A model generated the notes under the pieces. It saw only the letters and a list, made by a program, of their open reading frames with translations, was not told the DNA's origin and ran no database searches. 64,000 bases of DNA, from contig OZ024755.1 in NCBI GenBank assembly GCA_964016885.1, positions 13,950,001-14,014,000 of the forward strand, in the 5' to 3' direction. This stretch comes from Eledone cirrhosa (lineage: Eukaryota). The translations under genes were made by a program, and so were the position numbers. Shown here piece after piece: positions 51,223 to 51,339 of this stretch. Each line of letters opens with the position of its first letter. Position 1 is the stretch's first letter.

Positions 51223-51339
51223 TAGGAACAAGTAAGACCCCGGGGTCTTACTTGTTCCTATTACCCACTCTACTACCCTAAGTATTGAGTACTTTGGTGC
51301 GTTATGGTCCACCTGGTTCCTTACCACATTTCCTTCGTT
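51223..51339 (+). mobile_element. Family A element, shortest copy (38-bp perfect palindrome plus tail)
   Basis: TAGGAACAAGTAAGACCCC|GGGGTCTTACTTGTTCCTA followed by the family A tail; (TA)n on both sides. Confidence 0.85.

Follow-up and report, generated by a model that had tools for sequence, protein, structure and literature searches.

The window, i.e., the stretch of 64,000 nucleotides of Eledone cirrhosa DNA considered here, contains at 51222–51338 a head-to-head insertion in a (TA)n repeat. Both its halves belong to one repeat family, family A, which is numbered so that q1 corresponds to window position 560 and the predicted cut of its hammerhead ribozyme, q96/q97, to window 655/656. The left half is an inverted arm (51222..51241, minus strand), which runs from q116 to q97 and ends at the predicted cut. 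The right half is a forward part (51242..51338, plus strand), which runs from q97, the base immediately 3′ of that cut, to q193, the main start site of the reverse transcriptase (RT). The halves begin at the fixed positions q193 and q116, point apart, and meet at the predicted cut. On the right the insertion is flanked by (TA)n target (51339..51490), and on the left by (TA)n-rich target (51100..51221), where TA-rich sequence continues further left.

A sequence-only reading of the window had described the insertion as a perfect palindrome with its axis at 51241/51242, coinciding with the predicted scissile bond. Both statements are correct: the arms (51222–51241 and 51242–51261) are 20 bp long and match perfectly around the axis ACCCC/GGGGT, and the forward part starts where the 3′ product of the predicted cleavage would start. 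In the reference copy, GTC at 653–655 is followed by GGGGT at 656–660, and the forward part, taken as 51242–51339, is identical with window 656–753 in 94 of 98 positions. An identity of the palindrome with the natural 5′ strand of the ribozyme's stem I was rejected, since the sequences differ.

A longer family A copy, from the 3′ region of the element, spans q−248 to q193 (311..752, plus strand) and has an inverted remnant at 261–311. A third copy (53536..53728, plus strand) has the same layout as 51222–51338 and another junction: its arm, q116 to q52, occupies 53536–53600, its forward part, q62–q193, occupies 53597–53728, and the two overlap by 4 nt. It belongs to the major class of junctions described below, near the likely start site of transcription.

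The ribozyme is predicted as a type I hammerhead at 565..660 (plus strand), with stem I at 565–569/656–660, a U3-A8 core at 570–576, stem II at 577–585/625–632, GAAA at 633–636, a stem III of 5 bp at 636–640/650–654, and the cut at 655/656. The required type I features are present, i.e., the core boxes (TTGAGAA at 570–576, GAAA at 633–636, and GTC), three stems, the 3-8 pair (U3-A8), and G10.1-C11.1, and all named pairs are canonical. Unconstrained folding does not give the hammerhead as the best fold; its constrained energy is −20.6 versus −22.1 kcal/mol for the minimum, a gap of 1.5 kcal/mol. An Rfam scan of the window gave no match at the gathering score. Related families retain stem I with other letters. 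Three loci (L141, L167, and L137) hold rare diverged relatives with U3-A8 cores and a long stem II, in which stem I is changed yet paired (TCCTC/GAGGA, ATCCC/GGGAC). Seven near-identical loci (L004–L010) on contigs 20 and 27 share flanks and the core variant TTTAGAA, and are likely to stem from segmental or tandem duplication rather than from independent insertions.

Searches of the 3.0-Gb genome place family A at the repeated end of a Penelope-like element (PLE) of 3,530 bp. At one locus (L106), two q1–193 repeats lie 3,530 bp apart around an ORF, a partial tandem that forms pLTRs. The ORF, of 579 aa, contains YRDD and the motifs RLRWR and SDKTG (RWK-like and DKT); CNLC and CKH are present as well. 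GIY-YIG is matched weakly in a downstream frame (E 0.021, short of the threshold), in keeping with the ORF of EN+ PLEs, which codes for RT and a GIY-YIG endonuclease, and the copy has stops. A Pfam search returned no RT family. Where the Hydra clade has a CxCX5C linker the sequence reads CNCPDGSIF, with the third C absent in this single copy. The open frame starts near q140 with no in-frame ATG nearby, the ATG at q159 being in another frame, so that a 5′ intron or another start is possible. At another locus (L027, L107), a family A copy is adjoined upstream of q1, on the opposite strand, by sequence that codes for the RT of another PLE-like family, rich in AT.

Inverted arms beginning at q116 occur in 23,322 places in the genome. 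Forward parts end at q193, which is reached by 30 of the 30 best genome copies among the matches listed, most of them then followed by (TA)n. Family A thus displays an inverted 5′-truncated copy with a tail at one end, and both (TA)n targets and a predicted hammerhead, two features of the Hydra clade. Judged by the motifs RWR, DKT, CNLC, and CKH and by the TA targets, the element appears to fit that clade. As the accessible text of Craig et al. 2021 (PMC8557442) describes them, Hydra clade PLEs have RT followed by GIY-YIG, RWR and DKT, CxxC and CxH near the C end, a hammerhead in the pLTR, (TA)n targets, partial tandems, and inverted 5′-truncated copies. Each has its likeness here, CNLC and CKH being candidates for CxxC and CxH, which in the clade flank E and N, with no CCHH. 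There are differences of size: the tail is 77 nt in family A (q116 versus q193) but 30–40 in the clade, and the unit is 3.5 kb here but under 3 kb there. The Naiad clade was rejected, as the endonuclease is C-terminal, and so was a non-LTR retrozyme, i.e., a short non-coding tandem monomer with one hammerhead each, as the unit here is 3.5 kb and coding. Inverted copies with tails are standard PLE features and already known; what concerns us below is where the two halves meet.

The sequence-only reading had tied its model to a peak of truncation and inversion points at GGGGT, and a sharp peak, one base wide, is found there rather than an even spread. Junctions where both halves end at q97 with an insert of 2–7 nt between them occur at 67 loci genome-wide, compared with 0 at q99 and 0 at q95, where the search pattern for q95 was slightly shorter, and hence more permissive, than that for q97. 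Short junctions number 867 genome-wide, and the first 100, all from contig 1, divide into 43 with inserts, 10 flush, and 47 with overlap. Among the 86 ends at these insert-bearing junctions, 47 are at q97, 6 at q98, 6 at q99, and 1 each at q96 and q95, with an added C scored as q97, so that q98–100 are blurred into the peak. Both ends lie at q97 in 19 of the 43, and the 29 loci of the q97 class have 29 different flanks. Here and below, loci taken row by row from a listing stem from the first contigs alone. As the pattern behind the 867 junctions allows less room for junctions upstream of the cut, that zone was searched apart; it holds 544 junctions, of which the first 50 are, by eye, nearly all microhomology joins in stem III. 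None of these 50 has both ends at q96 with an insert, versus 11 of the 67 q97 loci in the same span (by eye). Copies that have no arm tell the same base: 10 of 27 start at q97, 4 at q98, and 0 at q92–96 (by eye, redundant and arm-bearing rows dropped). The first base added at q97 is A in 23, T in 17, and C in 7 cases, and such a predominance of A and T is expected for run-off from an RNA end. At three loci (L054, L143, and L214), long T/A runs of 13–18 nt lie between the arms.

In relation to all arms the q97 class is minor. CCCC followed by a non-G is seen in 1,078 arms genome-wide, a number which is not a count of stops, as 16 of 30 checked loci are true stops at q97 and the other 14 either read on beyond a substitution or indel or have their end at another place. 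Taken with this fraction, about 3% of arms stop at q97, while scaling 29 per 100 to the 867 short junctions gives about 250 loci, or about 1% of arms; in an unbiased first 100 arms, 2 end exactly at q97 and 4 at q96–98. The class hence makes up about 1–3% of arms. When an arm stops at q97, its partner ends at q97 or q98 in 9 of 16 cases (two of the 16 being one duplicated locus). In 3 of the 16 the partner extends to positions upstream of the cut; a single cut RNA does not account for these cases, unless the downstream repeat or another molecule supplied the partner. At one locus (L101, 1500–1900), an arm that ends at the predicted cut is attached to ORF body some 214 nt from the beginning of the unit, a near full-length insertion for which cut RNA may have been the template.

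Most arms behave differently. In the first 100 of the 23,322, 61 end at q52–63, 14 at q64–76, 5 at q77–95, 4 at q96–98, and 16 beyond, so that the stops of the major class lie about 40 nt upstream of the cut. At q56, the A of TYAGTC, 3,416 cDNA ends stop and are followed by a pyrimidine that the template does not encode, and 30 of 30 checked loci are true stops. The extra base is C in 86 and T in 14 of the first 100 rows (by eye), compared with C in 11 of 100 at the control position q60 (by eye, and mixed there with a subfamily T variant). Among 23 C ends at q56 that were checked by eye, 9 can be read as the partner's base and 14 are not so explained. An extra C is expected at the end of a cDNA made on capped RNA; a literature search for cap-templated C returned no paper. 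The motif TTAGTC at 613..618 (plus strand), with the A of q56 at 615, resembles what we take to be the initiator consensus. These observations make it likely that A615 is a capped start of transcription, situated inside loop II of the ribozyme, with the extra C as the trace of its copying; q97 is then read as an uncapped RNA end. A second start of transcription at q97 would likewise create a sharp and common RNA 5′ end, but we give it hardly any weight: the added base is C in only 7 of 47 cases at q97 versus 86 of 100 at q56 (C versus T, Fisher p 1e-7), the position coincides exactly with the hammerhead geometry, and a start at GGGG is not initiator-like by the consensus that we assume.

To see how such junctions could arise, consider an endonuclease that opens both strands of a TA repeat. 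With the element RNA as template, each target 3′ end would then prime one cDNA, starting at q193 on one side and at q116 on the other, and both cDNAs would run off the 5′ end of the RNA, gain untemplated bases, and join head to head, bluntly in the case of 51222–51338. Most templates would likely be uncut capped transcripts from q56, giving the major class at q52–63 with its extra C, and about 1–3% would be cut RNAs. On this view, the upper target strand likely primed the cDNA that became the arm at 51222–51241, with its beginning at the second RT start site. Arm and forward part carry the same haplotype at three sites in 44 of 47 junctions (0.33 expected), and it is likely that the two cDNAs copy one RNA or one source.

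The sequence-only reading had instead let one RT turn back at the cleaved end. In this alternative, which is related to the self-priming model of Arkhipova et al. 2013 (PMC3846280), a single cDNA is extended to the cut end and then bends back to serve as its own template. The perfect palindrome at 51222–51261 and the shared subfamily variants of the arms are what it would produce, and palindromes at head-to-head PLE junctions are interpreted as self-priming in the accessible part of that paper. Yet in 26 of 76 junctions the arm contains bases that the forward part does not have, and a single cDNA priming itself cannot yield such an arm. The arms begin at the fixed internal site q116, next to (TA)n, a start seen in 23,322 places, loops of 0–2 nt would presumably not self-prime, and the arm ending at q97 in L101 is joined to ORF body. 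We therefore regard folding back as quite improbable, and the structure of the insertions fits two cDNAs primed by the two target strands, and not one RT turning back.

The peak itself might also be explained for the whole class by RT arrest at q97 on uncut RNA, caused by RNA structure (stem III and the G run), with inserts left by end-joining repair. The position does border stem III, at the edge of the GGGG run, some inserts copy nearby sequence (AGTAAG, TACTA), and family B, described below, offers no clear replication of the peak. Against arrest speaks that stem III ends at q95, so that a block would be expected at q96, where just 1 of the 86 ends is found, that repair inserts would be expected in all registers, with none at q95 and q99, and that both cDNAs of one insertion often stop at q97 with A or T added. 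Arrest on uncut RNA is for these reasons unlikely, though less so than folding back. Microhomology at C/G had been named as another explanation in the sequence-only reading. It fails for the peak, which consists mostly of junctions with inserts between the arms that microhomology cannot make, and it is possible for the blunt copy at 51222–51338. Our preferred reading, with the positions of ends in the genome as its basis, is that the q97 peak probably records in vivo cleavage by the hammerhead, with the cut RNA copied back into DNA.

The copy at 51222–51338 has to be judged by itself, as its blunt junction at 51241/51242 can equally be read as a 2-nt CG overlap, the palindrome at q96–97. Two longer cDNAs could have been trimmed and joined through this palindrome, in which case the match with the cut would be due to chance. 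Blunt CG joins of this type occur 9 times in the first 100 short junctions and 43 times genome-wide, a count that covers two of the three subfamily letters. At other 2-nt palindromes the joins number 3 and 2 per 100, and at the CG palindrome of family B they number 9 in 50. The 9 joins per 100 stand, on the other hand, beside 19 double stops with insert at the same base, and the 6 one-base inserts among the q97 double stops lead one to expect a zero-insert share of about 6–7 from the cut class itself. Inserted bases are moreover beyond what CG microhomology can account for. Trimming and chance joining is for this one copy a possibility to be taken seriously, if a lesser one, and the copy probably belongs to the ribozyme-cut class. 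It is accordingly likely to be a Penelope-like retrotransposon insertion made from an RNA whose 5′ end was cut by its own hammerhead.

Replication in other families is weak or not clear. Family B has a minimal hammerhead with consensus CTGAGGA ... GAAAC-AATT-GTT/CTCG (30 loci; slash, cut). Among 50 of its 56 loci, inspected by eye, there is 1 blunt double stop, about 12 ends fall singly on the cut, 9 joins lie at a CG palindrome, and an insert class is missing, so that 2-nt microhomology is by itself enough to make local peaks. A third family yielded only 14 loci, 8 of them ending at the cut of that family on at least one side (by eye), a weak replication. In the window, family B is represented by a PLE fragment at 43370..43541 (minus strand) with a fold-back at 43516–43541, a core at 43497–43503 that is mutated here, and a predicted cut at 43472/43471. 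The fold-back had been put forward as a second example, its forward part starting within 3 nt of a predicted GUA site, but the family B core lies about 45–55 nt away. The GAAAC-A-GTA that was presumed to be this site is on the strand opposite to the core and depends on a variant base, most family B copies having GGAAC. What survives of the claimed fossil of in vivo self-cleavage is thus the peak of ends, with inserts, at the predicted cut of family A, while the second example lies off the cut of its own family.

The likely start at q56 has a consequence for the ribozyme. A transcript from q56 is devoid of q6–17, the 5′ strand of the ribozyme, and from this follows that cutting would require either a read-through RNA that began in a copy further upstream or base pairing with the repeat downstream. 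A two-strand cofold keeps stems I–III, but its pieces were chosen by the analyst, and the cofold is no evidence for a split ribozyme. One may tentatively go further, in a reading that we find attractive but more doubtful than likely, and see the head-to-head Penelope insertions as a fossil 5′-RACE library, which would record at single-base resolution a capped start at q56 by its extra C and an in vivo hammerhead cut at q97 by its extra A. With the start inside the ribozyme, a split hammerhead would perhaps make the cut, one that forms only through pairing of the RNA's 5′ end with the repeat downstream. Cutting would then be limited to complete or tandem transcripts, and the copies of cut RNA would lose the initiator.

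Whether PLE hammerheads cut in vivo, and whether transposition uses the cut RNA, is stated as open in the accessible text of Cervera and de la Pena 2014 (PMC4209133) and of Craig et al. (PMC8557442). The former describes a U3-A8 hammerhead variant in Schistosoma Cercyon PLEs and states that in vivo evidence is absent; its PLE hammerheads resemble the present one in being type I, in lying in the pLTR, and in their U3-A8 core and long helix II. The latter, on C-terminal EN+ PLEs of the Hydra clade, calls the function of the hammerhead unclear and has no end histogram in its accessible part. In the only in vitro study, Frangieh et al. 2024 (PMC11167929), the protein of the PLE Poseidon PAc from Anolis carolinensis nicks and extends both strands, with two RT start sites. 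Family A is similar to PAc in its two internal RT start sites, which give the tail, its AT-rich targets, and a pLTR overlapping the 5′ coding region. In the accessible text on PAc, cleavage was unnecessary in vitro, no RNA-seq reads ended at the cut, and no sign was seen that cut RNA is used, whereas in the genome considered here cDNA ends pile up on one base, at the predicted cut. The counts show at the same time that such cut RNAs are a small share of the templates; they also give a position to the likely capped start and, for the typical inverted repeats of PLEs, speak for two target-primed cDNAs rather than self-priming.

The nearest precedent for the junctions is R2, where according to the accessible part of Eickbush et al. 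2013 (PMC3774820) the 5′ junctions at the cut of an HDV-like ribozyme carry untemplated bases. In both systems, genomic junctions mark a ribozyme cut with untemplated bases. In R2 the fold is of HDV type, the cut defines all full-length ends, and one cDNA is joined to the target, whereas in family A the ribozyme is a hammerhead, the class is minor, and two cDNAs are joined to each other. The PLEs treated by Arkhipova et al. (PMC3846280) share with family A the palindromes at head-to-head junctions, the tail at one end, and an Inr-like motif in the pLTR; the model given in the accessible part of that paper is self-priming on an antisense template, while the family A data favour two target-primed cDNAs on sense RNA. 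A literature search, with subscription journals mostly outside it, found no paper with a junction analysis of this type, and the accessible part of one preprint (bioRxiv 10.64898/2026.07.22.740005) has no bearing on the junctions. L1-type twin priming uses a second primer whose annealing site, 5′ of the first cDNA, varies, and its arms do not overlap. Family A works alike but differs in structure, as its second start is fixed at q116 and both cDNAs copy the same stretch. The element is of a known kind, and what its junctions would add is new, indirect evidence on whether PLE hammerheads cut in vivo. The approach requires an assembly only and is applicable to any PLE family for the ranking of ribozyme activity.

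The window contains further repeats. Another head-to-head family in (TA)n is present at 27322–27458, 35294–35484, 43814–43965, and 52649–52719; it has a hammerhead-like GAAA box and a non-canonical first box, CAGAAGA, with 31 instances in the DNA examined. Two more hammerhead families, with CTGATGA cores and minimal stem III, lie on the minus strand at 42857–43180, with a fold-back, and at about 39150–39300. There are also a 608-bp direct duplicate (2020–2625 and 21314–21921, 97.5%), an inverted pair (24967–25344 and 28305–28700, 87%), and a TA-rich fold-back of 275 bp at 42143–42692.
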